Below are positions 16,339 through 62,789 of a DNA stretch of 64,000 bases, piece by piece. How positions within the stretch are numbered: the first letter of the stretch is position 1; each line of letters starts with the position of its first letter. The DNA comes from a virus (taxonomy: Duplodnaviria; Heunggongvirae; Uroviricota; Caudoviricetes), in IMG/VR virus record IMGVR_UViG_3300037454_000941, positions 138,063-202,062 of that record; one strand, written 5' to 3'. The translations under genes and the position numbers were made by a program. A model generated the notes under the pieces. The model searched no databases. It was given only the letters and a program-made list of their open reading frames with translations, and had not been told where the DNA came from.

Positions 16339-16977
16339 GTGGATGGAACAATGATTGGAAATGAAGAGCAGCACTATCCGATATTACCCGGAATGGAACT
16401 CCCGCACAATATCAAGGTGGAGGTTCACAAGGGCGAACTCGAACACCTGAGACAGACCATTTCTGACTTCGGGCATATAGTCGAGGAGAACGATCGTCTT
16501 AGGGAAAAGGTCGCCTCCTTGCAACGCCAGATTGCCACGGGCACTCCATGGAACCCGTGGATCCCGGTCGAGGACAACCCGCCGAAGGTTTCTGATGGGT
16601 TGTTCTATATCATGTGGGAGGATGGGTGCTTAGATACCGGTCTCGTGGCACCGAGCACTGGAGAAATTGTTCCACAGACGCCCAGGTCGCTCTATGAACT
16701 GACCGGTGACGAGGGACATTCGATTGAATGGTGGATGCCCGCGCCACCGCGTCCCGAAAAGATATCGCCACCGGCTGAAATGCCTACAAAAACTCCGGAA
16801 AAGGCATATGTGGTTGTCTTGAAGATGATGGACTCATGGTGCCTTGTTGGAAAGAAGGTTTTCACAAAATTCGAGGATGCCGAGAGGTTCCGTTTGCGGG
16901 CACAGGAAAAGACTCAGAAAATACTGGATACGGAAGAGGTCAAGCTCCTGGATAGTTACACCCCGCCACAGAAATGA
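16339..16977 (+). CDS. hypothetical protein
   Basis: 212-aa ORF. Confidence 0.6.
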   Translation: MDGTMIGNEEQHYPILPGMELPHNIKVEVHKGELEHLRQTISDFGHIVEENDRLREKVASLQRQIATGTPWNPWIPVEDNPPKVSDGLFYIMWEDGCLDTGLVAPSTGEIVPQTPRSLYELTGDEGHSIEWWMPAPPRPEKISPPAEMPTKTPEKAYVVVLKMMDSWCLVGKKVFTKFEDAERFRLRAQEKTQKILDTEEVKLLDSYTPPQK

Positions 16978-16983
16978 GCATGC

Positions 16984-17010
16984 AGGTTGCCGCAAGGCAA
17001 CCTTTTTGCT
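16984..17010 (+). terminator. Rho-independent terminator overlapping next promoter
   Basis: GGTTGCC-GCAA-GGCAACC + TTTTT. Confidence 0.55.
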
Positions 17011-17016
17011 ACATTT
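17005..17016 (+). promoter_or_regulatory. extended -10 promoter motif (TTTGCTACATTT)
   Basis: 5 nt upstream of ATG 17022. Confidence 0.55.
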
Positions 17017-17021
17017 GGGAC

Positions 17022-18257
17022 ATGAAGATTGAAGAAAAGTACATTTCCGAGACAGTCAAGAAGGGTATCGGCTTGCTCGCCGAAATCCATAAGCGCGGAC
17101 ACGAGGCATACATTGCCGGTGGCGCCGTGCGCGACCTCGTAATTCGCCAGTTGCACATGGTGCCGGGTTCCGAAAATGAAGTTCCCGTGCATGACGTGGA
17201 CATAGCGACCAACATGCCCATCGAGGACCTGAAACTTGCCTTCCGCTGCGACTCCAATAACGGGGAAGCGCATGGCACGATCCTGGTCCATTATGATGGC
17301 CTGGTGTTCGAGGTGACCCAGTTCCGCGTCGATGGCAACTATTCCGACGGTCGCCACCCGGATTCGGTGAATTTCACCAAGTCCTTCAAGGAAGACTGCG
17401 CCCGGCGTGACTTTACCATTAACGCTATGGGTCTGGACAAGGACCTCAATGTCATCGACTATTTCGGCGGTATCGACGACCTGGTATTCCGTCGTCTCCG
17501 TGCAGTGGGCAACCCGTATGACCGCATGACCGAGGATTCCCTCCGTATCATTCGCGGTATGCGATTTGCCGCCCGTTTCGGTTTCGTGATTGACGACCTT
17601 ACCAAGTTGGCCATGCGCAGCCGCCTGCACCACATCAAGAGCGTGGCGATGGAGCGCATCCATGACGAATTGCACAAGTGTGCCGAGTATGGCGTGCTGC
17701 CTTTCGCGAACATGATTGGGTACCTGTCCGAGTATGGCATCGGAACAATTTTCCAGGATGTCGGCTTCTGCTTTGACCGTCAGCGCATGCTCGTGGAATC
17801 CTTGGTACACGGAAACGTGGATGCCGATACAATCATGTCGGTATTCATCTGCATGCTGCCGAAGAAGAGCATGGAATGGCTCCGCTGCACCCGTAAGGAA
17901 ATCCGCATGGCCGAGCGCATCAGGGATGGTCTTATTGGCATCATGTCCGGGAAGTTCGGTCTTGCCGATGAGCAGTTGCTCTATTCCGTTGAACTGGCCG
18001 CTTCCCCGGAATTCAGGCTCATTACCAACCTGTACCGCGAACTGAACCCGTATGGTACCGCCCTGGGTGATGGTGCGGCGACGATATGCGATGTCATTGC
18101 GCGTTGCAGGAAGGGCGAACCCGAATACGGAAAGCAGGTTGCCGCGGAAGGTATCCAGGAAGGGCCTGAATTTGGCAAGCGCCTGCGGGAAGTCATCCTC
18201 GCCGATTACAAGCGCATCAAGGATGGCTGGGACAAATCATGCAATAGGATGTGGTAA
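17022..18257 (+). CDS. cca: tRNA nucleotidyltransferase (CCA-adding enzyme)
   Basis: GGAVRDLV...DVDIATN head domain, RRDFTINA, DRMTEDSLRIIRGMRFAARFGF motifs of class II CCA enzymes/poly(A) polymerases. Confidence 0.85.
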   Translation: MKIEEKYISETVKKGIGLLAEIHKRGHEAYIAGGAVRDLVIRQLHMVPGSENEVPVHDVDIATNMPIEDLKLAFRCDSNNGEAHGTILVHYDGLVFEVTQFRVDGNYSDGRHPDSVNFTKSFKEDCARRDFTINAMGLDKDLNVIDYFGGIDDLVFRRLRAVGNPYDRMTEDSLRIIRGMRFAARFGFVIDDLTKLAMRSRLHHIKSVAMERIHDELHKCAEYGVLPFANMIGYLSEYGIGTIFQDVGFCFDRQRMLVESLVHGNVDADTIMSVFICMLPKKSMEWLRCTRKEIRMAERIRDGLIGIMSGKFGLADEQLLYSVELAASPEFRLITNLYRELNPYGTALGDGAATICDVIARCRKGEPEYGKQVAAEGIQEGPEFGKRLREVILADYKRIKDGWDKSCNRMW

Positions 18258-44915: not shown

Positions 44916-44945
44916 TGGCCTCCTTTGTGCATGAAATATAGTAAA

Positions 44946-44957
44946 GTTGCTATATTT
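44946..44957 (+). promoter_or_regulatory. extended -10 promoter motif (GTTGCTATATTT)
   Basis: upstream of AAAGGAG-led ATG 44975. Confidence 0.5.
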
Positions 44958-44974
44958 CAGCCAAAGGAGTTATC

Positions 44975-45169
44975 ATGAAAGGATCCGAACTTGTTGCCGA
45001 GATACAGGAACTGATTAAGAAGCATGGCGATTTCGACGTCGCCAGGGCCGTGCGCGAGGAAGGTGCGCTGTATGATACGTTCGAGCCCATCAGCGGTGTG
45101 GACGTAGGACAGGAATATAACGCCTACCGCGGGGAGAATGTGGGCCCGAAATACATCGTAATCGGTTAG
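44975..45169 (+). CDS. hypothetical small protein
   Basis: 64 aa. Confidence 0.5.
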   Translation: MKGSELVAEIQELIKKHGDFDVARAVREEGALYDTFEPISGVDVGQEYNAYRGENVGPKYIVIG

Positions 45170-45409
45170 TTTCTTACGTGGAGCTTACAGAAAACTTATT
45201 TAATTCTTATTTCTTCAAAAAGCGGTCAAAAACCCTTTACAGCCGGAAATAAATTTGCTAAACTTATAGTCACAAGGAATACTTATGAACCAGAGAATTA
45301 CGACAATCATTACGAAGAAGCCCACCGGCTGGATGAAACCAGGCCGCGGTTTCGATGGTATTGATGGAATGATTCAATGTGTTCACCGGTAGTCCAAGTA
45401 CCCAGTTTT

Positions 45410-45460
45410 CTGCAGAAGAAAGGGGTCCCGGTGAAAACACCGGGACCCCTTCTGCATTCG
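45410..45460. other. long near-perfect hairpin (about 20-bp stem)
   Basis: TGCAGAAG(AAA)GGGGTCCCGGTG-AAAA-CACCGGGACCCCTTCTGCA. Confidence 0.6.
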
Positions 45461-45552
45461 CTGGTAAGCGCCGGGAGCCGTCGGACGGACAACTCGAGTA
45501 AGGTCGCCCGCTCCTCCCGGCGCCGGGACAGTCAGCACATGTCCCACCCCCT

Positions 45553-45624
45553 AGCCCTCGGGTGTGACTGGTAGCATCGCAGACTCCAAATCTGCAGGAT
45601 GGCGTTCGAAGCGTCAGGGGGCTG
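45553..45624 (+). tRNA. tRNA-Trp (CCA)-like, third copy
   Basis: acceptor AGCCCTC/GGGGGCT, AC stem GCAGA/TCTGC loop CTCCAAA, T-loop TTCGAAG. Confidence 0.45.
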
Positions 45625-45628
45625 TTAC

Positions 45629-45701
45629 GCATCTGTAGCTCAGTTGGTAGAGCGCATCCTTGCCATGGATGAGGTCACCGGATCGAAGCCGGCCAGATGC
45701 T
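45629..45701 (+). tRNA. tRNA-Gly (GCC)
   Basis: acceptor GCATCTG/CAGATGC, AC stem CATCC/GGATG loop TTGCCAT, T-loop ATCGAAG. Confidence 0.6.
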
Positions 45702-45710
45702 CGAAATTAC

Positions 45711-45781
45711 GCGCCTATGGTGTATTGGCTGCATCGCTGCCTTCCAAGCAGCGGGATCCGTTTCGACTACGGATAGGCGCT
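45711..45781 (+). tRNA. tRNA-Gly (TCC)
   Basis: acceptor GCGCCTA/TAGGCGC, AC stem GCTGC/GCAGC loop CTTCCAA. Confidence 0.6.
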
Positions 45782-45788
45782 TTAAAAT

Positions 45789-45859
45789 GCTTCTATATGC
45801 TAATGGTAGACGAGCGGACTCTTAATCCGTGGGTTCTGGTTCGAGTCCAGATAGGAGCA
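45789..45859 (+). tRNA. tRNA-Lys (CTT)
   Basis: AC stem GCGGA/TCCGT loop CTCTTAA, T-loop TTCGAGT. Confidence 0.55.
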
Positions 45860-45866
45860 CTAACAT

Positions 45867-45938
45867 TCCGGCGTAGCTCAGTTGGTAGAGCGGCCCCTTC
45901 ATACGGGGTTGGTCGCAGGTTCGAGCCCTGCCACCGGG
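45867..45938 (+). tRNA. tRNA-Met (CAT)
   Basis: AC stem GCCCC/GGGGT loop TTCATAC, T-loop TTCGAGC. Confidence 0.6.
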
Positions 45939-45951
45939 ACTAACAATCAAC

Positions 45952-46027
45952 TTCGATGCGTGGTGTAATTGGTTAGCACGCCGCTCTGATAAGGCGGTAG
46001 TTGTTGGTTCGAGTCCAGCCGTATCGA
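45952..46027 (+). tRNA. tRNA-Ile (GAT)
   Basis: acceptor TCGATGC/GTATCGA, AC stem CCGCT/GGCGG loop CTGATAA. Confidence 0.55.
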
Positions 46028-46041
46028 CTAAGGAGTAAGAA

Positions 46042-46076
46042 TATGAACAGACGAAAACGTAATACCTCGCGAATTT
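46042..46076 (+). other. tiny SD-led ORF (MNRRKRNTSRI, 11 codons) inside tRNA array
   Basis: AAGGAG 6 nt upstream of ATG; similar tiny basic ORF (MKKLKLKRL) at 7058-7087. Confidence 0.25.
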
Positions 46077-46081
46077 GACTT

Positions 46082-46154
46082 CACGGGTGTGGCGAAATTG
46101 GTATCGCAATAGACTTTTAATCTATGGGCTGCGGGTTCGATCCCCGTCACCCGT
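46082..46154 (+). tRNA. tRNA-Lys (TTT)
   Basis: acceptor ACGGGTG/CACCCGT, AC stem ATAGA/TCTAT loop CTTTTAA, T-loop TTCGATC. Confidence 0.65.
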
Positions 46155-46159
46155 ATAAC

Positions 46160-46234
46160 TGGGGCCATAGTTCAGTTGGCTAGAACGCCGGCTTGTCACG
46201 CCGGAAATCGCGGGTTCGAGCCCCGCTGGTCCCG
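46160..46234 (+). tRNA. tRNA-Asp (GTC), paralog of 5796
   Basis: acceptor GGGGCCA/TGGTCCC, AC stem CCGGC/GCCGG loop TTGTCAC. Confidence 0.65.
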
Positions 46235-46238
46235 CTAC

Positions 46239-46312
46239 GGTGCCGTAGCTCAGTTGGACAGAGCAGCCGTCTTCTAAACGGCCGGTCGAATGTTCGACTC
46301 ATTCCGGCATCA
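46239..46312 (+). tRNA. tRNA-Arg (TCT)
   Basis: AC stem GCCGT/ACGGC loop CTTCTAA, T-loop TTCGACT. Confidence 0.65.
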
Positions 46313-46321
46313 CGAATTTTT

Positions 46322-46394
46322 CGGCGTATAGCGCAGTTGGTAGCGCACATGCTTCGGGAGCATGGGGTCGCTGGTTCGAGTCCAGCTACGCCGA
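46322..46394 (+). tRNA. tRNA-Pro (CGG)
   Basis: acceptor CGGCGTA/TACGCCG, AC stem CATGC/GCATG loop TTCGGGA. Confidence 0.65.
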
Positions 46395-46404
46395 CTAGAC
46401 TTTC

Positions 46405-46477
46405 CGGGGTGTAGCTCAGATGGTAGAGCGCCTGCTTTGGGAGCAGGATGTCGCAGGTTCGAGCCCTGCTACCCCGA
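46405..46477 (+). tRNA. tRNA-Pro (TGG)
   Basis: acceptor CGGGGTG/TACCCCG, AC stem CCTGC/GCAGG loop TTTGGGA. Confidence 0.65.
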
Positions 46478-46480
46478 TAT

Positions 46481-46553
46481 GCCGTCGTAGCTCAGTTGGT
46501 AGAGCAGCGCACCTGTAATGCGCCGGTCGCTGGTTCGATGCCGGCCGACGGCT
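46481..46553 (+). tRNA. tRNA-Thr (TGT)
   Basis: acceptor GCCGTCG/CGACGGC, AC stem GCGCA/TGCGC loop CCTGTAA. Confidence 0.6.
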
Positions 46554-46556
46554 TAT

Positions 46557-46629
46557 GCCGGGTTAGCTCACTTGGCAGAGCGGCGCATTCGTAATGCGCA
46601 GGTCGCAGGTTCGAGCCCTGCACCCGGCT
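46557..46629 (+). tRNA. tRNA-Thr (CGT)
   Basis: acceptor GCCGGGT/ACCCGGC, AC stem GCGCA/TGCGC loop TTCGTAA. Confidence 0.65.
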
Positions 46630-46637
46630 CTCGCTTT

Positions 46638-46649
46638 TTTGCTATATTT
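46638..46649 (+). promoter_or_regulatory. extended -10 promoter motif (TTTGCTATATTT)
   Basis: 5 nt upstream of ATG 46655. Confidence 0.55.
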
Positions 46650-46654
46650 CAGGC

Positions 46655-47494
46655 ATGAAGCAATCCGAATTTACCAGACTACTTGACTGTTTTGTCGTGC
46701 ACGAAGGTTCGTCCGACAAGAAACCCCTCGAAGACTACTGCCATACCGGCCTCCTCGTCGACGCAAAGGGCGACCCGGATGCCGAAATCAGGCATGTCGT
46801 CACCGGCGTCAGCCTCCGCAAGGAACTCATCCTCCGCGCCATCGAACAGAAGGCCGACGCAATCATCGTCCATCACCCGAACGGCTTCTGGAAATCCGAG
46901 AAGGACAAGCGCCTCATCGGTACCCACGGCGAATACATGCGCCTCCTCATCCAGAACGGCATCAACCTCTACGGCTACCACCTCCACCTCGACCGCCATT
47001 ACCTGGTGGGCAACAACTTCACCATTGGCCGTCTCATCCAGTGCGAAGATCCGCAGCACCGCATGACGTTCACCCCGTTCCTCGACGGCATCGGCGTGAT
47101 GTTCGACGGTTGCCCGGCGAAGGAAACAATCGACAACGTGTTCCCGAACGGCTGGAACGTGGCGGGGGACCCTGAAGCTGTGAAACGCTTGCTCGATCCG
47201 TCCGTCGACAAGAAGTTCGCCGTATGCTCCGGCAGCTGCGGCCCGTCCGGCCTCGAAGAGGCCGAAATGCTCGGCGCCGACGTGCTCGTCACCGGGGAAA
47301 TCCGCGAATCCATGCCGATCTACGCCGAAGAGCACGGCATGGCGATTATCTACGCCGGCCACCACCGTTCCGAAATCTTCTGTGTCCAGTTCCTCGCCGA
47401 CTACATCATGGGCGCTGGCCAGTTCGAGGGCATGGGTGACAAGCGCTTCGAAGGCGTCACCGCGGAATTCATCGACATCGACAATCCTGTATAA
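46655..47494 (+). CDS. Nif3-family dinuclear metal center protein (YqfO/YbgI-like; GTP cyclohydrolase I type 2 homolog)
   Basis: RAIEQKADAIIVHHP ... GHHRSE motifs of the Nif3/DUF34 family. Confidence 0.7.
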   Translation: MKQSEFTRLLDCFVVHEGSSDKKPLEDYCHTGLLVDAKGDPDAEIRHVVTGVSLRKELILRAIEQKADAIIVHHPNGFWKSEKDKRLIGTHGEYMRLLIQNGINLYGYHLHLDRHYLVGNNFTIGRLIQCEDPQHRMTFTPFLDGIGVMFDGCPAKETIDNVFPNGWNVAGDPEAVKRLLDPSVDKKFAVCSGSCGPSGLEEAEMLGADVLVTGEIRESMPIYAEEHGMAIIYAGHHRSEIFCVQFLADYIMGAGQFEGMGDKRFEGVTAEFIDIDNPV

Positions 47495-47985
47495 TGACCG
47501 AAGAACAGTTCATCGCCATCCTCCCGCTGTTCCGCGGGACGCCCAAGCAGGTAAAGGCTGCGCTTGCGCCATACCCGGAAATCCACCGTATCGACATCGG
47601 CGTGATTCGCAAGATTCTGGGTTACACCGGCGAGCCGACCAAGACCAACGGGACGCCCGAAGTCCTTGCCGAGATGGTGGACAGGTACCGCAACGGGGAG
47701 GGGACGCTGCGCGGCCTCGCCGTCGAGTACCACGTCGCGCCCAAGACGTTCCAGCGGGCCTTGCACAAGGCGGGGTTCGACACCTCCAGGCAGGATACGT
47801 GGACCACCATAAAGGAAAAGCGCTTCCTGAAATACATTTCCGACGGGATGAGCTATACCGCGATCGCAAAACTGTTCAACATTAGCGTCTCGGCGGTGTC
47901 CCAGAAGGCCCACCGTCTCGGGGTTCCCAATGTCAAGCCGGGCCATCCCTGCAAGTTCAAGGGTGTGCGGCTGAGCAAGAAATAA
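47494..47985 (+). CDS. HTH DNA-binding protein
   Basis: C-terminal MSYTAIAKLFNISVSAVSQKAHRLG helix-turn-helix. Confidence 0.5.
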   Translation: MTEEQFIAILPLFRGTPKQVKAALAPYPEIHRIDIGVIRKILGYTGEPTKTNGTPEVLAEMVDRYRNGEGTLRGLAVEYHVAPKTFQRALHKAGFDTSRQDTWTTIKEKRFLKYISDGMSYTAIAKLFNISVSAVSQKAHRLGVPNVKPGHPCKFKGVRLSKK

Positions 47986-48033
47986 CTATTCACTCTCTAA
48001 CGGGCTGCTCGGAAGGCAGCAAAGGATAACAAA

Positions 48034-48861
48034 ATGGATATTCAGCTCCAAAAGCACAACGAAAAGGTTCCTGACAGCATCATGGAACATGTCCGCCGGG
48101 TCCCGACAAAGAACCTTTCCGAGCTCAACGCGGAACTCGCTCCGCTCGGCTTCGCCGCAATCGAAGTCGTCCAGGGCAAGGTTGACTGGAAGAACGACAC
48201 CACCCCGTATCCGAAGCCGGACCACTACATGGAAATCTTCGAAATCCATGACTATGTTGACCGCATGGTCGGCATCGCGCTCGAAAAGCCGGACGACGCC
48301 CGCGACCTTGTCACCAAGCTCCGCGGACTTCGCGAAACGCTCAAAAGCTGGGGTGCGAACGAAGGGGTCATCCGTTATGCACTTCCTTCCGCATGCAGGG
48401 AACGCGTCGCAAGCGATGCCGGCTTCATCAACAATATCACGGTCAAGGACATCCTGGTCAAGATTGAAGAGCTCCGCAAGGTCGCGGTACAGCTCCGCGC
48501 TCTCGACGGCGTGAAGGCTGCCGATGAAATGGCGTTAAAGTTCGCCGGCAAGTGGATCAAGCTCCATGAAAACTGCTATGGCAAGGTAAAGGACGTGGTG
48601 TCGTGCAACAACGACACTTTCGCCCAGGTTACCGGCGAAAAGTATGGCGTCGAACTCGATCTCGTTGTCGAACGGAGCAATACGGACAATTATCTCTCCC
48701 TCGACGACAAGAACGACATGGCATATCCGGTCTGCCTTGAAGATGCAGTGGAAGTCGCCCCGCACGACGTCCGCCAGATGGTGTGGGAATGGGAATCCCG
48801 TTTCGACCAGCACCGCAAGGATTTCCGCGACAAGTTCGATGCGGCCTGCGTGGGGAGGTAG
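48034..48861 (+). CDS. hypothetical protein
   Basis: 275-aa ORF. Confidence 0.6.
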   Translation: MDIQLQKHNEKVPDSIMEHVRRVPTKNLSELNAELAPLGFAAIEVVQGKVDWKNDTTPYPKPDHYMEIFEIHDYVDRMVGIALEKPDDARDLVTKLRGLRETLKSWGANEGVIRYALPSACRERVASDAGFINNITVKDILVKIEELRKVAVQLRALDGVKAADEMALKFAGKWIKLHENCYGKVKDVVSCNNDTFAQVTGEKYGVELDLVVERSNTDNYLSLDDKNDMAYPVCLEDAVEVAPHDVRQMVWEWESRFDQHRKDFRDKFDAACVGR

Positions 48862-48863
48862 TC

Positions 48864-49316
48864 ATGCTTAAGTCGAAGCTCGGCGTCATGGACACGCAGT
48901 CCGGCGAAATCAAGTGGACCGGCGAGCAGGACGTCGCGGAAACGGTCGAGTTCCTGGTCGAGAAGGGCGAGATGAAGGCTACATTCTGGCCCGACAAGGG
49001 TCCGATGTCGTCGGTCAAGGAGTTGCTTGACGCCTTGAAACCGTTGCGCGAACGCGTCCTTTCCCCGCGAGGGACGATCGAAGTCCTTACCAAGGGCAAG
49101 ATGACGTGCTACAAGTACGGCGTCCCCCGCAAGGAAGACGGCAGGGAAGTGCAGGACCTGACCATGACGGTGATTACGGGCAAGGTGGTAATCAGTGTCG
49201 GGGACCGCATCCGCCCGATCCGCGCAATCGAAAAGAAACAATTAAAGGCCGCCATGCGGCAAAGGATAGCAAGGAGAGAACCATGCTTAAGAATACCATT
49301 ATCATCTGTGCGCTAG
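48864..49316 (+). CDS. hypothetical protein
   Basis: ATG in-frame with track ORF 48783. Confidence 0.5.
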   Translation: MLKSKLGVMDTQSGEIKWTGEQDVAETVEFLVEKGEMKATFWPDKGPMSSVKELLDALKPLRERVLSPRGTIEVLTKGKMTCYKYGVPRKEDGREVQDLTMTVITGKVVISVGDRIRPIRAIEKKQLKAAMRQRIARREPCLRIPLSSVR

Positions 49317-49591
49317 TCGCAGCATCGGCATTTGCCGACCTTTGTGCCGATTTCGTCGTGGTCAACATCGCCACGAACGATACGACCCTCCACTTCTCCC
49401 AGAAGGGCCTCAACAAGGGCGACGTTACCAACGGCGACTGCCATTACGAAACCGACTGGTTCGGTAGCGGCGTGCAGTGGCGATGCGAGAACATGTACCT
49501 TATCAAGGACGGCCAGTCCCTCTACATCCCCAAGCGCAACGGGGAGTTCTCGCAGAAGCAGTTCACGTTCGCCTGCGAAAGCATCTGGTAG
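49283..49591 (+). CDS. small secreted protein (paralog of 39967)
   Basis: AAGGAGAGAACCATG; signal peptide ...CALVAASAFAD. Confidence 0.5.
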   Translation: MLKNTIIICALVAASAFADLCADFVVVNIATNDTTLHFSQKGLNKGDVTNGDCHYETDWFGSGVQWRCENMYLIKDGQSLYIPKRNGEFSQKQFTFACESIW

Positions 49592-49611
49592 GACTTATCC
49601 GATAGAGAGAG

Positions 49612-49636
49612 AAACAACAAGCCCCGGCTTCTGCCG
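49612..49636. terminator. bidirectional Rho-independent terminator between convergent genes
   Basis: AGCCCCGGC-TTCT-GCCGGGGCT flanked by A/T runs. Confidence 0.6.
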
Positions 49637-49647
49637 GGGCTTTCATG

Positions 49648-50463
49648 TTATTTGACGCGCTTGATGAACTTTTCCTCGTATTTGTCGAGCAGTGCCCGTT
49701 TCTTGTCGTCGATGGGGTAGCGTTCGCAGCCCTTGGGCTTCATGAACCTGACCAACGCGCGGATGAAATCGGGCGTCACCGTCTCGTAGTGCCTGAACGG
49801 GGATTTGAACCTATCCAGGAGCCTCTCGAAGGCGTCCACGGTATACTTGCTGTCCTCGGAAGCGGCTTTCCATACAGTCTGCATTTCCCCGAGGACGTTG
49901 TTGGTGTCGTGGTAGCCGTACATGAAGCCGAGGTCTTTCAGCTTGCCTTCGTAGGGGTCGTCGAGCACGCAGTTGGTGTCGTCGACGATGTAGCGGACGC
50001 AGTCGCGGTATTTCCCCTTCGTGTCGAACGCCATGCCCTGGATTTCGACGAACTCGATGCGCCTGACACGGACGGTGTGGTCCTCGCGGTCAATCTCGAC
50101 GTCGGGGAAGAAGTTCTCTCCCCACCCGTCCGAAATCTGCCCGTTGAGGTACTTGACGACTTCCTGGGTGAACGAGTAGAAGTTCGCCATCTCGTCCGCG
50201 GTGACGGTGAAGCATACGTAGAGCTGCTTGTCGCGGGCGCTGACGTGGGTCGTGATTTCCCTGATTACGTTGCCCTTGCTGGTGTCCCCTTCGTGGAGGC
50301 AGTCGGCGAGCGAGGGTGCGCAGGAGAACGCGATGACTTCCTTGTCGCATTCGAGCTCCTCGATTATTTCGAGCAGTTTCCAGTGGGGCGGGTCGATTTC
50401 ATCGTCGTCGGACCTGCGGGTGAACGTGAGCGGGGCGAAAAATTTGAGTTGGTGCTGTATCAT
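49648..50463 (-). CDS. hypothetical protein
   Basis: minus-strand ORF; its ATG lies about 20 nt downstream of a minus-strand TTTGCTATATTTT motif (complement of 50481-50493). Confidence 0.6.
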   Translation of the reverse strand: MIQHQLKFFAPLTFTRRSDDDEIDPPHWKLLEIIEELECDKEVIAFSCAPSLADCLHEGDTSKGNVIREITTHVSARDKQLYVCFTVTADEMANFYSFTQEVVKYLNGQISDGWGENFFPDVEIDREDHTVRVRRIEFVEIQGMAFDTKGKYRDCVRYIVDDTNCVLDDPYEGKLKDLGFMYGYHDTNNVLGEMQTVWKAASEDSKYTVDAFERLLDRFKSPFRHYETVTPDFIRALVRFMKPKGCERYPIDDKKRALLDKYEEKFIKRVK

Positions 50464-50480
50464 TGTAAAACCTCTGCAAT

Positions 50481-50514
50481 AAAATATAGCAAACTCGCGC
50501 ATTTTGCTATATTT
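50481..50514. promoter_or_regulatory. back-to-back divergent promoter motifs (minus-strand TTTGCTATATTTT; plus-strand TTTGCTATATTT at 50503-50514)
   Basis: two copies of the motif in opposite orientation 10 nt apart. Confidence 0.5.
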
Positions 50515-50580
50515 CATGGCATGGATATTTACTTAATTACGGCGAGTGCGCACTGATGCTCGAACCGGCATGAGGCATAT

Positions 50581-50994
50581 ATGGAAGCACACAACATTCT
50601 TGTCACTGTCCATGGCCATGAATACAGCGTCAAGCAGAAAAACGGTGGTTGGTGCGTATTTCCGACCCCGTTGCATGCGGACGATGAAATCGAAGTCCTG
50701 CGCAAGGCCAACCGGACGGTCAACGGCTATTACGAATCCCTCCAGGGTTCCATCATTTACATGGAAGGACTTGGCTCGGCAACCCGCATCACGATGCAGG
50801 TCGCCAAGCTGATCGGGGATCTCCTTGCCAACATCGTCATCGACGAGGACCCGACCCGGTCCGGGTACGACACTGCATATTCCCCGAAAATCGTGTTCCA
50901 TAATCGGGAAGATTTGCTTGTGTATGTGGAAAAATATGCTCCATTTGCGATGGAACTGATAAAGCAGCTTGGAAAAGATTATAAGCTGCAATAA
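50581..50994 (+). CDS. hypothetical protein
   Basis: 137-aa ORF. Confidence 0.55.
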   Translation: MEAHNILVTVHGHEYSVKQKNGGWCVFPTPLHADDEIEVLRKANRTVNGYYESLQGSIIYMEGLGSATRITMQVAKLIGDLLANIVIDEDPTRSGYDTAYSPKIVFHNREDLLVYVEKYAPFAMELIKQLGKDYKLQ

Positions 50995-51010
50995 ATTTCG
51001 CTCTTTTTGG

Positions 51011-51040
51011 TTGACATTCGTAGTTTAAATTGCTACATTT
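51011..51040 (+). promoter_or_regulatory. sigma70-like promoter (TTGACA-18nt-TACATT) overlapping the phage motif AATTGCTACATTT
   Basis: heads the ORF-free 51050-53810 region. Confidence 0.5.
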
Positions 51041-51049
51041 AGGTCAGCC

Positions 51050-51465
51050 GGAAAGACCGGTGGTTTGGCCGTGAGCCATATCGGAAGATTGACATTCTGG
51101 AAGTGTTTTAAATTTGCAGCGGTGGTACGGGTATTTAACCGGGTTAACTCCCCTATGATTTTACCTGCCCGTACCGCCGAAAAGTTTGAAAGTGGCCGCC
51201 TGCAGCGGCATCGTAGTTCCTCGTCGTACCAAAACATGGCATGGTCTTGATAGTAAAGAGTGCAGGGTTGCATGCGACCCGGGTATTCTCCCATGTACTG
51301 GGCGTGCAAACTGTACGCCGACGTAACGACCTAAGCCCCTCGGCTGGGGGCGTTGTTCCTGGACTGACCGTAGTACGTTGGAAAGGGGACGATCGTAGAA
51401 GTAGGAAGAGTCAGCCCCCTCTGGGAGATCTTGCCGTCAAAGGCGCCGTGAGGCAAAGGGGCACC
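51050..51465 (+). ncRNA. candidate structured ncRNA segment A (unknown class)
   Basis: no ORF over 65 codons; 11-bp long-range helix GGTGGTACGGG...CCCGTACCGCC; GC-rich; ends at tRNA-Pro. Confidence 0.4.
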
Positions 51466-51467
51466 TA

Positions 51468-51543
51468 CGGGATGTAGTTCAGCCTGATTTAGAACGCTCG
51501 CTTTGGGAGCGAGAAGTCCCTGGTTTAAATCCAGGTATCCCGA
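51468..51543 (+). tRNA. tRNA-Pro (TGG)
   Basis: acceptor CGGGATG/TATCCCG, AC stem CTCGC/GCGAG loop TTTGGGA, T-arm CCTGG-TTTAAAT-CCAGG. Confidence 0.6.
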
Positions 51544-51554
51544 TATATAACGCC

Positions 51555-52025
51555 GATGGGACGATTGAGTTTCCTGGATACTCGTTCGACCGGTTCCTTG
51601 CGGCGATAGGAAACTAGTCGCATGTTTGGTGAGATGTTTAGTTTCGACTGGGCATCGGACCATCAGCTACCCAACGGGGAAACCCGTTGAAATTGAAGGA
51701 AACTTTGATTTCATAGTTGATTAGACTCAGTAATGCATAGCAATATGCTGAACTACGTTAGGAAGGTCATGGCACCCTGGGATGTACGGTCAAGTCCCCC
51801 GCCCTGCCGTCCGTGGTTAAACAGTCCTGATGGGTAGGGACAGTGCTGCGGGCATGACAAGCCTTCCTAACATTGTCGATGACCACCCACAGGGGCAACC
51901 CCTGCATTACCCGATTAAGTTCGGGTTCCCGTAAAGGGCCAACGCCGGGACGCCGCTCACACATCTTCAGTGGGTGAGTTCCCGCCCCGGCAAAGGTTTT
52001 CTATATTGAAACAGGTGGACTATGT
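51555..52025 (+). ncRNA. candidate structured ncRNA segment B with tmRNA-like 5' motif
   Basis: contains GGTGAGATGTTTAGTTTCGACTGGGCATCGGACC, similar to the tmRNA 5' end GGGGGTGCTTGGTTTCGACTGGACATCTGACC; GNRA loops (GGGAAACCC); no canonical tmRNA 3' end found. Confidence 0.35.
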
Positions 52026-52028
52026 ATT

Positions 52029-52387
52029 TGGGGGTGCTTGGTTTCGACTGGACATCTGACCTCATAGACCTCGCCCGAAGTTGGTCTGTGGCTTCGTAAA
52101 AACGGACTGAAAAAATAAATGCTAACGATGCATTCGCCTGCCGCATGGCTGCCTAATCGGTAGTTATGCTGCTGCCTGGGACAAGCGAGAGGAATAAATC
52201 CTGGGACCAAGTGCATATCTCTCAAATCTAGGTCGGAGTTATGGATTGGATGGCCTACCTTACCTTAATCCAGACCCCTCACTGGTTAGATCACCTTGGG
52301 CAACAGGTCAGGGCCCGAATAGATTGATGGCGATATGGTTGAACTGGAATGGCGTTTAGGACAGGGGTTCGACTCCCCTCACCTCCA
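52029..52387 (+). ncRNA. ssrA: tmRNA (ssrA), one-piece; tag reading frame GCU AAC GAU GCA UUC GCC UGC CGC AUG GCU GCC UAA (ANDAFACRMAA)
   Basis: 5' GGGGGTG..GGTTTCGACTGG and 3' GGGGTTCGACTCCCCTCACCTCCAC give a tRNA-like domain with a 7-bp acceptor (GGGGGTG/CACCTCC, one GU); internal short ORF ending in AA-stop. Confidence 0.75.
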
Positions 52388-52389
52388 CG

Positions 52390-53808
52390 AATTTATGTCC
52401 TTCCACCGGTAGGACCGCCCTTCAGCACGGGGTAGAGTGCGCATACGGTTTCGAGTGTTGCCGATGCTGCATGAAGGTGGTGGACCAAAGTATGACCTGA
52501 GGACCCATCCAGGTGGGATGGGCGTGGCAAGATGCTTCGTAACAGATTCGCAAGGTCAGAGGCTCCCGTAAGGGTTACCGTCGAATATAGGTTAATGAAG
52601 ACGGGTAAAATCGAGAATATCCGGATTATTCCAGCCCAGGATATGCCTAATAATTTCTCTCCTGCCCCCTTCGAGGGTACGGTTGCGCCGTGGGCTGCGT
52701 ACCAGTCACGGCTGCGTAAAGCGGTAGGCCGGCGCTATATCCGGCAGTGTGTTTGAAAAATGGATACTGAGCATGGTTTCTCGTAGCATTACGCCCGAGG
52801 GTCGCGCCCTCTAAGGTATCCGCAGTTTCCGAAATTCGCAGACCAGTGCAGGATGCGCATCCGGCTGGCCGGGACACGTAGGGGACGGAAGAAAATGCTA
52901 CTATCCATTGAACGCGGTCGTCTAAATGAGCAGGCGTTAATATCGCCTGTGCTTAGGACTCCGGCGCCATCGTGGCCACCAGGCATTAACAGGTGTGGCA
53001 AACAGCGCGGGCAATATAGGGACAGATCCTATCCGCGAAACCTATGGAACGCCTTATTATTAAGTACGGTGAGAGTCCGGGCGGCGGGGCAACCCGCAGC
53101 CGAAGTAGGAAATTTTAAGATTCCGGGATGTTCTATAAAACGTCATCGGTGAAGATTGTTGGGGAACATCGTCTGGTCGAGGGCGAAAGCCTGTGGAGAC
53201 CCACGCCTAACCGCGCCGATGGCAAACTTTTAACGCCGCAGACCAAGATACGCCACCGTGTATGCATTTTACGCGTTTCCTTTATCACACGGAAGTATCG
53301 CCCCACCGGGCTACGGTCGCGGTATCAGTTTAGCACCGTATGGCCAAGTTGCTCATGGGCATCTCGAGAAGACCCATGGGTGACGCCCCGACTAGGAGCT
53401 GGGCCGCGGCCACAGTCGCATGCCGACTAGCACCCTCGGGGGAGCGATCCGAAACGAGGCGCCTCTGTGAGCGAAAAATGTGTGAAAAAGCATGCGGCAA
53501 GGGGCGAGACCTCCACTGGTAAAAACCTTGGCCTCGCCCCGGCGCTTTTGTTGCTTCCCGTTGCCAGCGGGGGGAACAGACGGTACCTGGCTCCGTGAAA
53601 ACCAGGTTATGCCCGGCACCAGGCAAACCGGACGGTGCCCATTGGCGATGTCCCTGCCGGAATAAGGGATGGCGGTGAAGGCAAGATATCCGCACGCTGT
53701 GGTAAATCCTTCTCGTACAGAGGGACGAGGGGTAATACACGGCAACCGAGGTGGCATCTCGGTTTCTTCCATGTGGGGGCTATCCGATGGCCATCGGATG
53801 CTCCTTTC
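52390..53808 (+). ncRNA. candidate large structured ncRNA segment C (about 1.4 kb, unknown class)
   Basis: GC-rich, many GNRA tetraloop hairpins (GGGCGAAAGCC, CCGTAAAGGG, GCGTAAAGC, CCGTGAAAACCAGG); only short ORFs in all frames; flanked by tmRNA and tRNA-Thr. Confidence 0.4.
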
Positions 53809-53810
53809 CT

Positions 53811-53883
53811 TCCGGGGTAGCTCAGTTGGCAGAGCAGTTGCTTTGTAAGCAAACTGTCGGGAGTTCGAGCCTCTCCCCCGGAG
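53811..53883 (+). tRNA. tRNA-Thr (TGT)
   Basis: acceptor TCCGGGG/CCCCGGA, AC stem GTTGC/GCAAA loop TTTGTAA, T-loop TTCGAGC. Confidence 0.65.
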
Positions 53884-53960
53884 CTAGTAGAGAGGAATGG
53901 TAAAAACTTGCTGGCCTTCCTATAAACTGCATATATGAATGATAAAACACATATATGTAA

Positions 53961-54194
53961 GATTTCTTAGATTTTGCATGGCCGGCACGTAAAATTGATA
54001 TTGAAGTTGATGGCGAACAGCATTACACTACTAAAGGACTGGAACACGATAAGATAAGAACCGAACGCCTTATGCAAAGTGGATGGAGGCTTGTTAAACG
54101 CATAAGATGGTCACAGTTCCAAAAGTTAAATAAAGATGAGCGAAAACAATTTATAAATGAAATTTTTACACTTCTAAATAATGATGCGAGTTGA
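53961..54194 (+). pseudogene. DUF559 (Vsr-like) endonuclease-domain gene remnant, lacks start
   Basis: frame translates ...IDIEVDGEQHYTTKGLEHDKIRTERLMQSGWRLVKRIRW... (DUF559 core) but opens right after a TAA with no in-frame ATG; AT-rich. Confidence 0.45.
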
Positions 54195-54257: not shown

Positions 54258-54450
54258 TAGTATTGATTTTTGAGATAGAACAAGGTCTAAGCAGAAAGTC
54301 GCGGGTCTTTAGTTCCAAATGACTAGAACACCGACCGGGGCAACCCTCGTTGGAGGTTCTGGGTTCAAGTCCCAGTTGATCCGAATAGCGGCGCGAGCTG
54401 TCGAACGAGTAGGCTAGGTCACAGTGAGAAAGGACTGTTTGAAAGTGTAA

Positions 54451-54524: not shown

Positions 54525-54535
54525 TTAGTCCCCAT

Positions 54536-54945
54536 GGAGATGAAGCAGGTGCCCGTGTCAAGGTAGATCCTGTTGGGCCATCCCGTAGCATAAGTGGGCA
54601 ATAAGTAACCGGAAGCGACAGGGCAAGCCGGGTAATGCGCCATGTGGACATGCAGTTTAATATGAAACATATTCGGTATATCGTACCTGAGGTGACGTAA
54701 ACAAGCCAGCCACGAGAGGTGGATAGATTCCTCGGTACTCCGGGCTGTCGTATTGTTCGGAGGGAAGGCCATTTGCTTGTTAGTCGCAGGTACGGTATAC
54801 CGGAATGAAAAACTCTGGTATCGGCGGAGATGATGTAAGGGAACTCCCGCAGGTAGATCCTTTGGGGAGCGTGCAGTAGCATAAGTTGCGGAATAAGTGC
54901 TTGGGTACCGTTCGGGGAAGCCAAGTAATGCGCCGCCGATGCCTT
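54536..54945 (+). repeat. two tandem copies of a structured element of about 110 nt upstream of the tnpB element
   Basis: shared blocks GGAGATGA, CAGGTAGATCCT, GTAGCATAAGT, AATAAGT, AAGCC, GTAATGCGCC with divergent intervening segments; copies at about 54536-54650 and 54825-54945. Confidence 0.5.
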
Positions 54946-54949
54946 TTGA

Positions 54950-56430
54950 AATTGGTGACAAATAGGCGGTCGCAAGCTCACGCCCTTTAGGGCGTGGGTA
55001 AGACCCGCCGATAGTAAATGTAAGAAATAAATAACATTTGAAAGCCTCATAATTATTGTATATTTGAGTTAAGATACTATAAACTTTAATTGAAGTCAAG
55101 AAATTTATTATGGAAGCAGTAAGAAGCGAAAATACGAAGGCCAAGATACGGGCAAGCATGTCCGCGACGAAGGCCAGACGACAGGCACAGGTCTGTCGCG
55201 TATTTGAGCTTAAAGTATCCATAAGGCATAATCCGAAGGAAACCTTCAAAAAATTAGCCCAATGTTTCAAGGAAGCTAAATGGGTAATCAACGACATGCT
55301 GTCATTATCCAAGGACAATCCCGACAATAGCATGTTCGACTACAAGTACACAGAGCACAAAGATGTAGTCCACTACGACAAGGACAAGAACCCGATAACG
55401 GATACGGTCACATTGCCATCGGTGCTTCATCGTGCTACAGTAGCTCAGAAGAAGACGGATATTGTCAACCTTGCCAAGGCCAAGAAGAAAGGCATCAAGG
55501 TCGGTGCGTTGAAGTTCAAGTCGGAAGTCAACTGCCTACCAATTATTACCGGATTTACGCAGATTCTGGACGGATGTCGAATAACCATTCCTGGCTTTCG
55601 TAAGCTCCGTGTACACGGCCTTAATCAATTACATCAATTCGAGAAGTGTGAACTTGCCGATGCCAAGCTGATTAGGAAGGCATCCGGCTACTACGTGAAG
55701 ATTAGCGTAATGCTACCGAAGGAGAAGAGGATTCCTACCAACCGCAACGTTGGTCTCGACTTCGGAATAAAGGATTCCATAACGACATCGTACGGTGACA
55801 AGTACAAGTGTAATGTGCGAGAAACAGACCGCCTAAAATTCCTGTCGCGGAAACTTAATCGTAGAGGGAAGAAAAAGAACGAGAAGGGGTCGAAGCTGTA
55901 TTACAAGTGTCTTCGTCAACTGAATCGTGAGTATGAACATATTGCCAATGTCCGCAAGGACATTGCCAATAAAATCTACCACAAACTGGTAACCGATTAT
56001 GATGTTATCTACTTTCAAGACGAGCAGATAAAGAACTGGCATAAGGGCTTGTTCGGAAAACAGGTGCAGTCATCGTGTCTTGGCACATTGAAGCAGAGGC
56101 TAGTTGCATTGGAAACAAGTGGCCGTAGCTTCAAGATTTCCAAGTGGGAACCGACTACCAAGCTATGTCCAGTATGCGGTACTATCAACCATCCTACTCT
56201 TGCCGACCGTATCTATAAGTGTGAATGTGGTTATACGATGGATAAGGATGTTCATTCTGCCCGTGTAGTCTTGATGATTGGCTCATCAAAAAGAGCTGAG
56301 TGCTTGGAACAAGCCTCGCCGGAGCTGAGTCCGCTACCGACTTGCAATCCGATTGCAACTAGGCAAGACTTGGCGTCGATGACACAACACGAAGCTCACC
56401 GCCTTTAGGCGGTGGGTAGTTCACAAGGAA
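54950..56430 (+). mobile_element. IS200/IS605-family tnpB-only element with subterminal hairpins
   Basis: LE-like hairpin GCAAGCTCACGCCCTTTAGGGCGTGGG (about 54972-54998), tnpB, RE-like hairpin AAGCTCACCGCCTTTAGGCGGTGGGTAGTTC (about 56391-56422). Confidence 0.55.
55110..56408 (+). CDS. tnpB: TnpB (IS605/IS1341-type RuvC-like nuclease with Zn finger)
   Basis: 432 aa; GLDFGIKD RuvC motif, CPVCG...CECG zinc finger, HSARVVL. Confidence 0.9.
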   Translation: MEAVRSENTKAKIRASMSATKARRQAQVCRVFELKVSIRHNPKETFKKLAQCFKEAKWVINDMLSLSKDNPDNSMFDYKYTEHKDVVHYDKDKNPITDTVTLPSVLHRATVAQKKTDIVNLAKAKKKGIKVGALKFKSEVNCLPIITGFTQILDGCRITIPGFRKLRVHGLNQLHQFEKCELADAKLIRKASGYYVKISVMLPKEKRIPTNRNVGLDFGIKDSITTSYGDKYKCNVRETDRLKFLSRKLNRRGKKKNEKGSKLYYKCLRQLNREYEHIANVRKDIANKIYHKLVTDYDVIYFQDEQIKNWHKGLFGKQVQSSCLGTLKQRLVALETSGRSFKISKWEPTTKLCPVCGTINHPTLADRIYKCECGYTMDKDVHSARVVLMIGSSKRAECLEQASPELSPLPTCNPIATRQDLASMTQHEAHRL

Positions 56431-61635: not shown

Positions 61636-61670
61636 CAAGCTCACCGCATTTAGGCGGTGCGTAGTTGACA
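61636..61670 (+). repeat. solo copy of IS605-type subterminal hairpin (CAAGCTCACCGCATTTAGGCGGTGCGTAGTTGACA)
   Basis: near-identical to the RE hairpin at 56391-56422. Confidence 0.55.
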
Positions 61671-62048: not shown

Positions 62049-62672
62049 ATGTTAAATTTATTCAAGCGCCAGTGGTTACCGACATACGTGAGGGACATGC
62101 TGAATAGCACGTTCCCTTCTTCTGTATTCAAGGTCGAATTCCGCATTGATGGCAAGATGGTTGACCTGGACGACGTGAAGGGAAACGAACGTCACATTGA
62201 CGAGGGTACGGTTACTTACACTGACACGAACGGGGACAAGACGGTGGCCCGCCTCATGCTGTACAACGGTAAGGTGACGGAGGGCACAATTCGTTGCGCG
62301 AATGACACGTTCATACTACTGGGCATCGAACCCGGTGTCCGCGAATTGCCGACGGTGGGTAAGCCCGGGGATGTTGAGAAATATCGGGAAAAGCTGAAAC
62401 GGAAACTATCGGATGCGATTGGTTACTGTCCGGGGTCCTTCCTGGACCGCAACCAACAGTATCCGGTCACCGATATACCCAGGTGGGGTCGCGGTCGACT
62501 GTTGAACCTGTTGGCCAACATGGGTACGGAGGGTATCACCGCGTTCGTGTCCTTTGACCTGGATGATGCATCATTGAGCCAGCTGGAAAAGTTTAATGAC
62601 GAACTGGAGCTGGCCATGCTGGTGGAAGACTCGCCGAAGCCTGAGCTGATTGATGCCGCAGGCACGGTATAA
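62049..62672 (+). CDS. hypothetical protein
   Basis: 207-aa ORF. Confidence 0.55.
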   Translation: MLNLFKRQWLPTYVRDMLNSTFPSSVFKVEFRIDGKMVDLDDVKGNERHIDEGTVTYTDTNGDKTVARLMLYNGKVTEGTIRCANDTFILLGIEPGVRELPTVGKPGDVEKYREKLKRKLSDAIGYCPGSFLDRNQQYPVTDIPRWGRGRLLNLLANMGTEGITAFVSFDLDDASLSQLEKFNDELELAMLVEDSPKPELIDAAGTV

Positions 62673-62680
62673 TGACGTGA

Positions 62681-62725
62681 TGCATTTGTGAACTACCCAC
62701 GCCCTAAAGGGCGTGAGCTTGCGAC
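62681..62725 (-). repeat. inverted copy of IS605-type LE-like hairpin (complement reads GGCGGTCGCAAGCTCACGCCCTTTAGGGCGTGGGTAGTTC)
   Basis: matches 54966-54998 in reverse orientation. Confidence 0.55.
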
Positions 62726-62789
62726 CGCCTCTTTGTCAAATTTGTACAAAAAACACCGGGAACTCCCGGTGTTTTCTGTGTGAAGTCAT

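Follow-up and report, generated by a model that had tools for sequence, protein, structure and literature searches.

Conserved structured RNAs in a probable promoter-driven stable-RNA operon around the tmRNA gene of a tRNA-rich giant phage

Positions 51011-53884 of a 64-kb stretch of viral DNA (IMG/VR record IMGVR_UViG_3300037454_000941; the whole stretch is referred to below as the window) probably constitute an operon of stable RNAs, driven by a promoter and without protein genes, in the genome of a tRNA-rich giant phage. Throughout this block RNA features follow one another back to back on the + strand behind one promoter, in the order segment A, tRNA-Pro, a leader, a HEARO RNA lying between two copies of the 5' end of the transfer-messenger RNA (tmRNA), the tmRNA itself, the modules of segment C, a variable part termed C-II, and tRNA-Thr (Table 1). 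Segment A and the modules of segment C, ~1.8 kb in total, recur in conserved form in a clade of phage contigs from metagenomes, show compensatory base changes and belong to no Rfam family. The first-pass annotation of the window had proposed one or more novel large noncoding RNAs at this location. That observation largely holds and its interpretation was partly right: segment A (424 nt) is structured and without an Rfam family, but segment C did not stand up as a single 1.4-kb RNA and is modular instead. Beyond their large tRNA sets and their tmRNAs, little of the RNA repertoire of giant phages has been charted; the block supplies bounded candidates with comparative support, namely a 424-nt RNA and the small modules C1, M1 and M2-M4.

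The comparative evidence was drawn from 20 related loci in independent assemblies (IMG/VR, JGI, ENA, NCBI WGS and Logan), each covering parts of the region and designated by an L-number where loci must be told apart. An alignment of eight sequences of segment A (81-94% identity) extends from the promoter until 1 nt ahead of tRNA-Pro, and its consensus fold comprises 101 pairs in 17 helices with 99.4% of the cells paired. Changes on both sides were found for 11 pairs, compared to 3.2 ± 1.4 in shuffles (none of 500 reached 11) and 0-3 in slid controls, in which the pairing partners were shifted by 1-3 alignment columns; 7 of the 17 helices contain such pairs. Among the helices is one that the first-pass annotation had picked out as a long-range perfect helix, GGTGGTACGGG/CCCGTACCGCC (51121-51131/51168-51178), which exists within segment A and in which 4 of the 11 pairs covary. 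Two measures place segment A on the + strand: 14% of its paired cells are G-U, and folding of this strand is favored over that of the - strand by 40 kcal/mol; across the alignments as a whole, the corresponding ranges are 11-14% of paired cells and 40-47 kcal/mol of alifold energy. Folding of the single sequence was not exceptional (z = -1.14), and the case for structure therefore rests on the relatives rather than on the single sequence. No Rfam match to segment A was obtained, even at E ≤ 10. These alignments make a convincing case that segment A is a real, conserved and new structured RNA of 424 nt.

In segment C (52391-53810), the alignment of 12 sequences gave 298 consensus pairs in ~40 helices, with 95.4% of the cells paired and 47 covarying pairs versus 5-13 in slid controls, so that the conserved, covarying helices on which the first-pass annotation had staked its proposal were found in this segment as well as in segment A. 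All of the covarying helices are local, spanning ≤119 alignment columns, and only two long-range helices were predicted in the 12-sequence alignment, neither of which covaries. Over 1.16 kb the segment is built of about nine locally folded modules of ~50-140 nt (C1, M1-M4 and lineage-specific inserts), after which comes C-II, and the stretch that runs from the tmRNA to the M4 hairpin is between 422 and 1161 nt long, depending on the locus. As judged from these comparisons, segment C is not one 1.4-kb RNA; it strings together small structured elements of differing age, old as well as recent.

Module C1 contains a 31-nt stretch, CCGGTAGGACCGCCCTTCAGCACGGGGTAGA, that is identical in the window, L094 and L083, the tmRNAs of which are only 79-93% identical; its closing helix (52397-52407/52476-52485) has three covarying pairs and its inner hairpin (52438-52448/52461-52471) has seven. 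For M1, 13 distinct sequences from four lineages gave 29 pairs, 95.5% paired, among which 11 had changes on both sides, compared to 4.3 ± 1.6 in shuffles (none of 500 reached 11) and 1-6 in slid controls. M2 and M3 have few changes, with three covarying pairs and many one-sided changes that are compatible with G-U pairing; one of their hairpins is swapped for a larger hairpin in L113 and L120, and 53046-53141 is deleted in L103, L105, L107 and L121. The M4 hairpin changes from GGGGCGAG/CTCGCCCC in the window to GGGGTGGCTC/GAGCCACCCC in relatives and has three covarying pairs. C-II has a full-length homologue in L100 only (86% identity over 52993-53886), the homology of L120 reaching to 53579, and compensatory changes are seen in two of its hairpins (CCGAG/CTCGG to CCGGG/CCCGG and ATCCGAT/ATCGGAT to ACCCGAT/ATCGGGT). 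In most of the relatives that reach this point the position of C-II is taken by a tRNA, by eye tRNA-Asn (GUU), with or without ~170 nt of unrelated sequence. The distant loci L108 and L110 have in common with the window only C1 and M1, to which L108 adds part of M2, and L112 has M1 without C1 or M2, its M1 abutting a further unit that in the window sits 2 kb downstream (54818-54934). In most relatives an additional structured insert of ~105 nt, which the window does not have, lies between the 3' end of the tmRNA and C1 (e.g., L106 1912-2016); it has 10 covarying pairs and gives weak partial matches to the permuted-tmRNA model (33.7 bits, E = 0.004).

The leading idea of the first-pass annotation for segment C, a single giant ornate RNA of ~1.4 kb resembling GOLLD, is improbable in light of these data. 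It is true that C is continuous, ORF-free (ORF, open reading frame) and structured between two processing landmarks, and that it adjoins tRNAs in a phage, as do GOLLD (RF01998) and ROOL (RF03087), which have been described as large, protein-free, structured RNAs of unknown function located in phages and prophages beside tRNA genes (PMC5737381; PMC12286853). Segments A and C share with these families that they are protein-free, structured and flanked by tRNAs, with 17 helices in A and ~40 in C. GOLLD and ROOL, for their part, assemble into multimers. However, A is shorter, at 424 nt, and C is a variable chain of local modules rather than a fixed architecture: whole modules are gained or lost between relatives, the last 260 nt are replaced in most relatives that reach them, the most distant loci retain only a few of the modules, and no long-range helix covaries. 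This variable architecture argues against a fixed multi-domain RNA of the GOLLD or ROOL type. Searches with the family models agree. The GOLLD model had no match at its gathering score, nor at E ≤ 10 on 50900-54000, and the ROOL model likewise matched nothing in the window at either threshold and nothing in six related loci at E ≤ 1, therefore membership in either family is excluded. Similarly, RNase P models had no match at E ≤ 10 in the window region or in the compact version of it in L112, group I and group II intron models had no match in the window, and segment C, like A, had no match to any other family of Rfam 15, even at E ≤ 10, consistent with the first-pass annotation having recognized no known class in either segment. 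L106 does have a group I intron in its equivalent RNA island, at 4117-4381 and outside the homologous part; the match to RF00028 scores 55.4 bits, which exceeds the gathering score.

Protein coding, whether under an alternative genetic code or in short ORFs, is effectively refuted for the block, even though gene callers in public collections did call ORFs in the region. As the first-pass annotation had stated, there is no credible ORF: none of >150 codons occurs in any frame of segments A, B (the part between tRNA-Pro and the tmRNA) or C. Stops of all three kinds are numerous in each frame, and read-through of TGA, TAG or TAA never gives >165 codons in any frame of the three segments, so the non-coding assignment stands under any single stop reassignment. 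There is no suppressor tRNA among the 54 tRNA and tmRNA genes that ARAGORN identified in the window, and the called "proteins" have no Pfam domain. In addition, one-nucleotide indels occur within the most conserved stretches of A, which excludes coding there, and the changes that are seen are compensatory in RNA helices.

With regard to the setting, the window contains 53 tRNA genes and one tmRNA gene (ARAGORN), and a Pfam scan identified among its other genes two for TnpB, a CCA-adding-enzyme-like ORF and NAD-salvage genes. Because of this tRNA and tmRNA load and gene content, and because the related loci include IMG/VR viral contigs of 75-222 kb, the window was treated as part of the genome of a tRNA-rich giant phage. 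The promoter that the first-pass annotation placed at the head of the block was found with a spacer of 17 nt; sites of this grade number two in the 64 kb versus 0.12 expected, and both hexamers are kept in the seven relatives that were aligned with segment A. As a sequence feature, the promoter is strong and conserved. The tRNA-Pro, tmRNA and tRNA-Thr genes also lie where they had been placed, as determined by both ARAGORN and Rfam. The reported elevation in GC content is correct relative to the immediate flanks (0.43-0.49), which the block exceeds, and incorrect relative to the coding DNA at 46.5-50 kb (0.55-0.61). A reported density of GNRA hairpins was not borne out: there are five with a stem of ≥4 bp, versus 2.5 ± 1.5 in dinucleotide shuffles, a number that 27 of 300 shuffles reached, and three of the five are located within the HEARO RNA. 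GNRA enrichment was therefore discarded as not significant.

The spacers between neighboring features of the block are nearly nil, as segment A stops 1 nt before tRNA-Pro, C1 begins 2 nt past the tmRNA and C-II stops 1 nt before tRNA-Thr. Under the proposed operon model the block would be transcribed as a single precursor, which RNase P and the 3' tRNA-processing enzymes would cut at the borders of the tRNAs and tmRNA. Since the gaps at these borders are only 1-2 nt, cuts there would free segment A and pieces of C as discrete RNAs, which are predicted to be stable and highly folded. On balance we lean slightly toward these pieces being stable and acting in trans during infection, and their role would probably be tied to phage translation or to the RNA toolkit of the phage. 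GOLLD and ROOL, which may persist as stable RNAs in a similar way, offer the closest comparison. The tRNA cluster of phage T4 encodes two small stable non-tRNA RNAs (~120-140 nt) that are co-transcribed, are released by tRNA-processing enzymes and have no known function. The RNAs considered here differ from them in their total length of ~1.8 kb, in having no detectable similarity to them, and in that we infer their processing.

A different and, in our view, unlikely explanation is that segments A and C act in cis only, A as a long 5' leader and C as a 3' trailer of the embedded tRNAs and tmRNA, without accumulating independently. In that case they might promote processive antitermination, shield against nucleases or provide a scaffold on which processing proceeds in order, and a long hairpin-rich operon would presumably gain from antitermination. 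The placement of the elements would suit such roles: segment A is always directly behind the conserved promoter and heads the block, C1 is always directly 3' of the tmRNA where a tmRNA is present, and the M4 hairpin and U run stand directly before a tRNA in relatives (the tRNA begins 3 nt past the U run in L106, L102, L103, L105, L107, L114, L117 and L119). However, it is an endonuclease gene or other ORF, not a tRNA, that follows segment A in L114, L116 and L118, and L112 has the leader, M1 and the D unit without a tmRNA. Furthermore, 424 nt with ~17 helices far exceeds the needs of known antitermination and processing signals.

We also considered the explanation that the block is non-functional debris in a recombination hotspot, consisting of remnants of mobile elements and homing endonucleases and of dead RNA genes, with its conservation due to kinship or exchange. 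The island is indeed mosaic, since the closest IMG/VR relatives, L002 and L003 (found via an upstream ORF), are 98% identical to the window over 44933-50915 and unrelated to it beyond 50915. The junction at 50915 is spanned at 100% identity by an independent Logan contig and is therefore not an assembly artefact. This 6-kb module, which consists of a tRNA array and five or six ORFs, is all that L002 and L003 have in common with the window, being bounded by unrelated sequence on both sides, which suggests that different phages have recently exchanged a cassette. Debris would also be in keeping with the neighbors of the block (the HEARO, two TnpB genes and a DUF559 endonuclease remnant, with intact DUF559 and GIY-YIG genes in relatives) and with a large deletion in L117. 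Nevertheless, pairs with compensatory changes outnumber those in shuffled as well as slid controls in A and M1, and those in slid controls in C as a whole. Five relatives fully cover the 3' core of A (230 nt) and match it at 91-97% identity, and those that fully cover M1 and M2 match at 88-97% (M2 82-97%), levels above those of the adjacent tRNA-Pro (68-75%). The invariant 31-nt core of C1 likewise persists although the tmRNAs next to it differ by as much as 21%. For these reasons debris seems very improbable, and a little more so than a single giant RNA does.

Several points weigh against the preferred reading of the block as an operon of stable, trans-acting RNAs. The limits of the transcript, the stability of A and C and their action in trans are all deduced from sequence. 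The homologues are fairly close (75-97% identity), therefore many helices never vary, and the conservation could in part reflect recent shared ancestry or exchange between phages. Segment A was detected only in the closer lineage, the distant lineages giving a marginal nhmmer match (E = 8e-4, 69 profile positions, 25-93). Transcription could stop before the end of the block, at the M4 hairpin with its U run or at either of two weaker terminator-like sites. Finally, L117 is without everything from mid-M1 to M4, by eye through a deletion between two AGCGGTA repeats that leaves a whole span of 422 nt, so most of segment C would be dispensable, at least in that contig.

The statement in the first-pass annotation that the ORF-free stretch is interrupted only by tRNA-Pro and the tmRNA has to be amended, as it missed a complete HEARO RNA; segment B consists of a leader of the tmRNA gene and a HEARO insertion. 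The stem of the leader, identified by eye as TTTCCT/AGGAAA, is TTGCTT/AAGCAA, TTGTCT/AGACAA or ATTTCTG/CAGGAAT in relatives, and the leader is present also in L112, which is without a tmRNA. The IscB nuclease is guided by an omega-RNA, and HEARO forms the scaffold of that RNA (PMC10055086). Five more copies, scoring 90-117 bits, were found in the relatives. At the tmRNA site the HEARO is present in L103, L105, L117 and L118, and there is none in L102, L104, L106, L109, L111, L114, L108 and L110. The 130-nt extension 3' of the HEARO is not in the empty sites, and in its first hairpin pairing is kept, by eye, with differing stems and GNRA loops (GGGGCAACCCC, GAGCGAAAGCTC, GGGGGAAACCCCC and GGGCGCAAGCCC). 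The HEARO at the tmRNA thus appears to be a secondary mobile insertion that is not part of A or C. No ORF for IscB was found 3' of it: the next feature is the tmRNA, 140 nt downstream, with no ORF between. A Pfam scan of the 20 large ORFs of the window likewise revealed none that is IscB-like, and none was apparent among 29 ORFs of ≥280 aa in the related loci, of which the N-termini were inspected by eye without a domain scan. Protein-less elements that have only an omega-RNA and would need a nuclease in trans have been described (PMC10055086). The element at 51662-51890 resembles such HEARO or PATE-like elements in being a full-length, mobile insertion with two different insertion sites among relatives. 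It differs from them in residing, without an IscB ORF, inside RNA genes of phages (the tmRNA, and segment A in L118), and in having beside it a diverged second copy of the stretch that it interrupts, through which the tmRNA is intact again. To our knowledge, IS200/IS605 elements do not create duplications.

The sequences flanking the HEARO correspond to the uninterrupted tmRNA gene of relatives. In HEARO-free loci the leader is followed by GGGGGTGCTTGGTTTCGACTGGGCATCGGACC and then by ATGGAGACC... (L106 and L114, with L102 and L110 a few bases off). In the window, L117 and L118 the order is instead a wrecked copy with an intact 16-mer, the HEARO and its extension, and then a second copy that starts the intact tmRNA. 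The last 16 nt of the first copy (51646-51661, GACTGGGCATCGGACC) occupy the position of the omega-RNA guide, and it is the acceptor-stem part of this copy that is wrecked. In the HEARO-free loci L106 and L114 the tmRNA gene contains the guide 16-mer without a mismatch, and in L102 and L110 it does so with one base changed; in these genes ATGGAG (GTGGAG in L110) comes next. The window's own tmRNA, the 5' end of which (within 52022-52061) is the second and intact copy of the repeat, has GACTGGACATCTGACC in this place, with two mismatches to the guide, and then TCATAG instead of ATGGAG. A second HEARO lies within segment A of L118, where the flank ...GTACCAAAAC is identical to uninterrupted A, which has the counterpart GTCGTACCAAAAC and goes on with ATGGCA; here again a diverged copy of the preceding stretch is found 3' of the element. 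At two independent sites, then, the guide position holds the sequence of the uninterrupted allele, ATGG adjoins it in that allele, and the occupied allele has an altered duplicate. NWRRNA has been reported as the target-adjacent motif of OgeuIscB (PMC12660989); ATGGCA conforms to this motif, ATGGAG conforms at 5/6 positions, and TCATAG does not conform. A third near-match to the guide 16-mer, at 62317-62332, was set aside as probably due to chance, as it has two mismatches, lies inside the ORF at 62049-62672 and has no ATGG after it.

This arrangement reads like guide-directed homing with the addition of a copy that escapes the guide. Homing directed by the guide (at the donor joint) has been shown for IscB and TnpB (PMC10055086; PMC10690162). 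The element resembles these systems in that its guide 16-mer equals the uninterrupted allele of relatives beside ATGG and that its own downstream copy is altered in both target and motif. It differs in that no nuclease gene was found and in that the "rescue" duplicate has no described counterpart in the biology of IS200/IS605 elements. As a tentative proposal, which we regard as possible but doubtful, segment A and the modules of C would be new phage-specific classes of structured RNA, adding to the tRNAs and tmRNA one more layer in the RNA equipment of giant phages, and, jointly with this, the ORF-less HEARO would be an RNA-guided homing cassette that invades the RNA genes of competing phages. 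The guide would target the uninterrupted tmRNA allele (in L118, the uninterrupted allele of segment A) beside ATGG, a nuclease supplied in trans would cut that allele, and the element's diverged copy of the interrupted stretch would evade the guide and keep the RNA gene working. A limit on this reading is that L104 (- strand), which is HEARO-free, already has the "immune" tmRNA allele of the HEARO-bearing phages, GGACATCTGACCTCATAG; either its HEARO was lost by recombination between the flanking repeats or the allele pre-dates the element. If the proposal is true, the cassette is a natural counterpart of a "home-and-rescue" gene drive. The insertion as such is of interest as a case of omega-RNA elements moving within phage RNA genes without a nuclease of their own, and should the combination of guide, target and "immune copy" prove functional, competition between phages would be a new setting for RNA-guided homing.

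Table 1. Features of the RNA block, with positions in the window
Feature	Position	Strand	Basis and remarks
Sigma-70-type promoter, TTGACA-17 nt-TACATT, TG extended -10	51011-51039	+	10/12 consensus positions
Segment A, conserved structured RNA, 424 nt	51043-51466	+	Boundaries from nhmmer profile; from promoter to 1 nt before tRNA-Pro
tRNA-Pro (UGG)	51468-51543	+	ARAGORN; Rfam tRNA 57.8 bits
Conserved hairpin leader ahead of the tmRNA gene in all lineages	51551-51621	+	77-82% identical in 7 relatives
Degenerate first copy of tmRNA 5' end	51622-51661	+	Direct repeat of 52022-52061, 75% identical
HEARO RNA (RF02033), IscB omega-RNA scaffold	51662-51890	+	121.6 bits (gathering 83), E = 1e-24, model 1-211/211
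HEARO 3' extension, four or five hairpins	51891-52021	+	Ends AGGTGG-N4-ATG; accompanies HEARO in L117 and both L118 copies
tmRNA (RF00023), tag ANDAFACRMAA	52030-52390	+	111.7 bits over full model; ARAGORN tag frame
C1, three-hairpin domain directly 3' of tmRNA	52392-52485	+	Invariant 31-nt stretch; covariation
Lineage-specific insert between C1 and M1	52486-52653	+	Common only to L102 contig
M1, conserved structured element, ~95 nt	52654-52762	+	Invariant GCGUACC, GCGUAAAG, AGUGUGUUUGA
Optional domain, closing helix 52783-52790/52894-52901	52763-52910	+	Lacking in L102, L108, L110; in 10 other sequences
M2 and M3 (52915-53037, 53043-53137, 53142-53223)	52911-53249	+	78-97% identical in relatives
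Lineage-specific domain	53250-53414	+	Common only to L100, L120; helix 53247-53252/53294-53299, 3 covarying pairs
M4, ends in strong covarying hairpin (53501-53540), then GGCGC-UUUU	53415-53549	+	In 12 sequences
C-II, variable structured segment, 260 nt	53550-53810	+	Ends 1 nt before tRNA-Thr
tRNA-Thr (UGU)	53811-53884	+	ARAGORN; Rfam 59.3 bits

The related loci were obtained by several kinds of search. Distant blastn against GenBank phages (INPHARED) gave only tRNA-sized matches. With the 3' end of the tmRNA as anchor, ~90 mostly unrelated loci, assumed to be prophage attachment sites, and one true relative (L083) were found; a 25-mer just 3' of the tmRNA that is common to L083 and the window then identified the 203-kb contig L094, and a 21-mer from C1, in the same post-tmRNA stretch, matched 11 metagenome stretches. 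A gapped pattern for M1 identified the 222-kb contig L112, and nine more contigs (ENA and Logan) were found when the "proteins" of spurious gene-caller ORFs in the region were used as queries. No relatives were found via a downstream 538-aa protein, and exact-pattern scans of viral contigs with a 22-mer from M3 and a 27-mer from segment A gave no match, the 27-mer having missed L094 because L094 has one extra C. The C1 and M1 patterns had no matches in 185,579 bacterial and archaeal species genomes, and a literature search of incomplete coverage found no description of A, C1 or M1.

A number of additional features were noted in the block and its surroundings. The tmRNA gene ends (52380-52390) with ...CCTCCACGA, so that its 3' CCA is not encoded, and the phage has its own CCA-adding-enzyme-like gene (16974-18257) with a PolyA_pol head domain. 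Downstream of the block, the 193 nt between two tRNA-Met genes (54258-54450) are 92-98% identical in nine related loci, which is above the surrounding tRNAs; the only Rfam signal in them is a sub-threshold tRNA match at 54303-54383 (28 bits versus a gathering score of 29), and they may be an unusual tRNA-like RNA. Two tandem units of ~290 nt follow at 54525-55110, the first ~115 nt of which (54527-54642 and 54818-54934) recur in at least 10 related loci and contain a stem, CTTGG/CCAAG, that covaries by eye (CTAGG/CCTAG, CCGG/CCGG). In L112 (1613-2145, - strand) a homologue of the tandem unit comes directly after M1 and runs on into an extension of 330 nt, to which L108 and L110 are 86-87% identical. 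Neither the tandem units nor the L112 extension matched Rfam, and RNase P-like motifs seen by eye in the extension were dropped after cmscan gave nothing at E ≤ 10.

Genes and remnants of mobile elements are also present around the island. TnpB (OrfB_IS605/Cas12f-like TNB) genes at 3792-5183 and 55110-56408 flank the tRNA islands, and repeats that are 88-98% identical and resemble the ends of insertion sequences occur near the second TnpB gene and at 61.6-62.7 kb (54956-55000, 56392-56425, 61637-61670 and 62686-62738). Between tRNA-Thr and tRNA-Met, at ~53991-54194, is the truncated frame of a DUF559-type endonuclease. Endonuclease genes are found in L116 (1876-2565), L118 (1195-2004) and L121 (1094-2023), two of these relatives having an intact DUF559 gene after segment A and the third a SegE-like GIY-YIG gene within the island. 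Free-standing homing endonucleases probably drive the mosaicism of the island.

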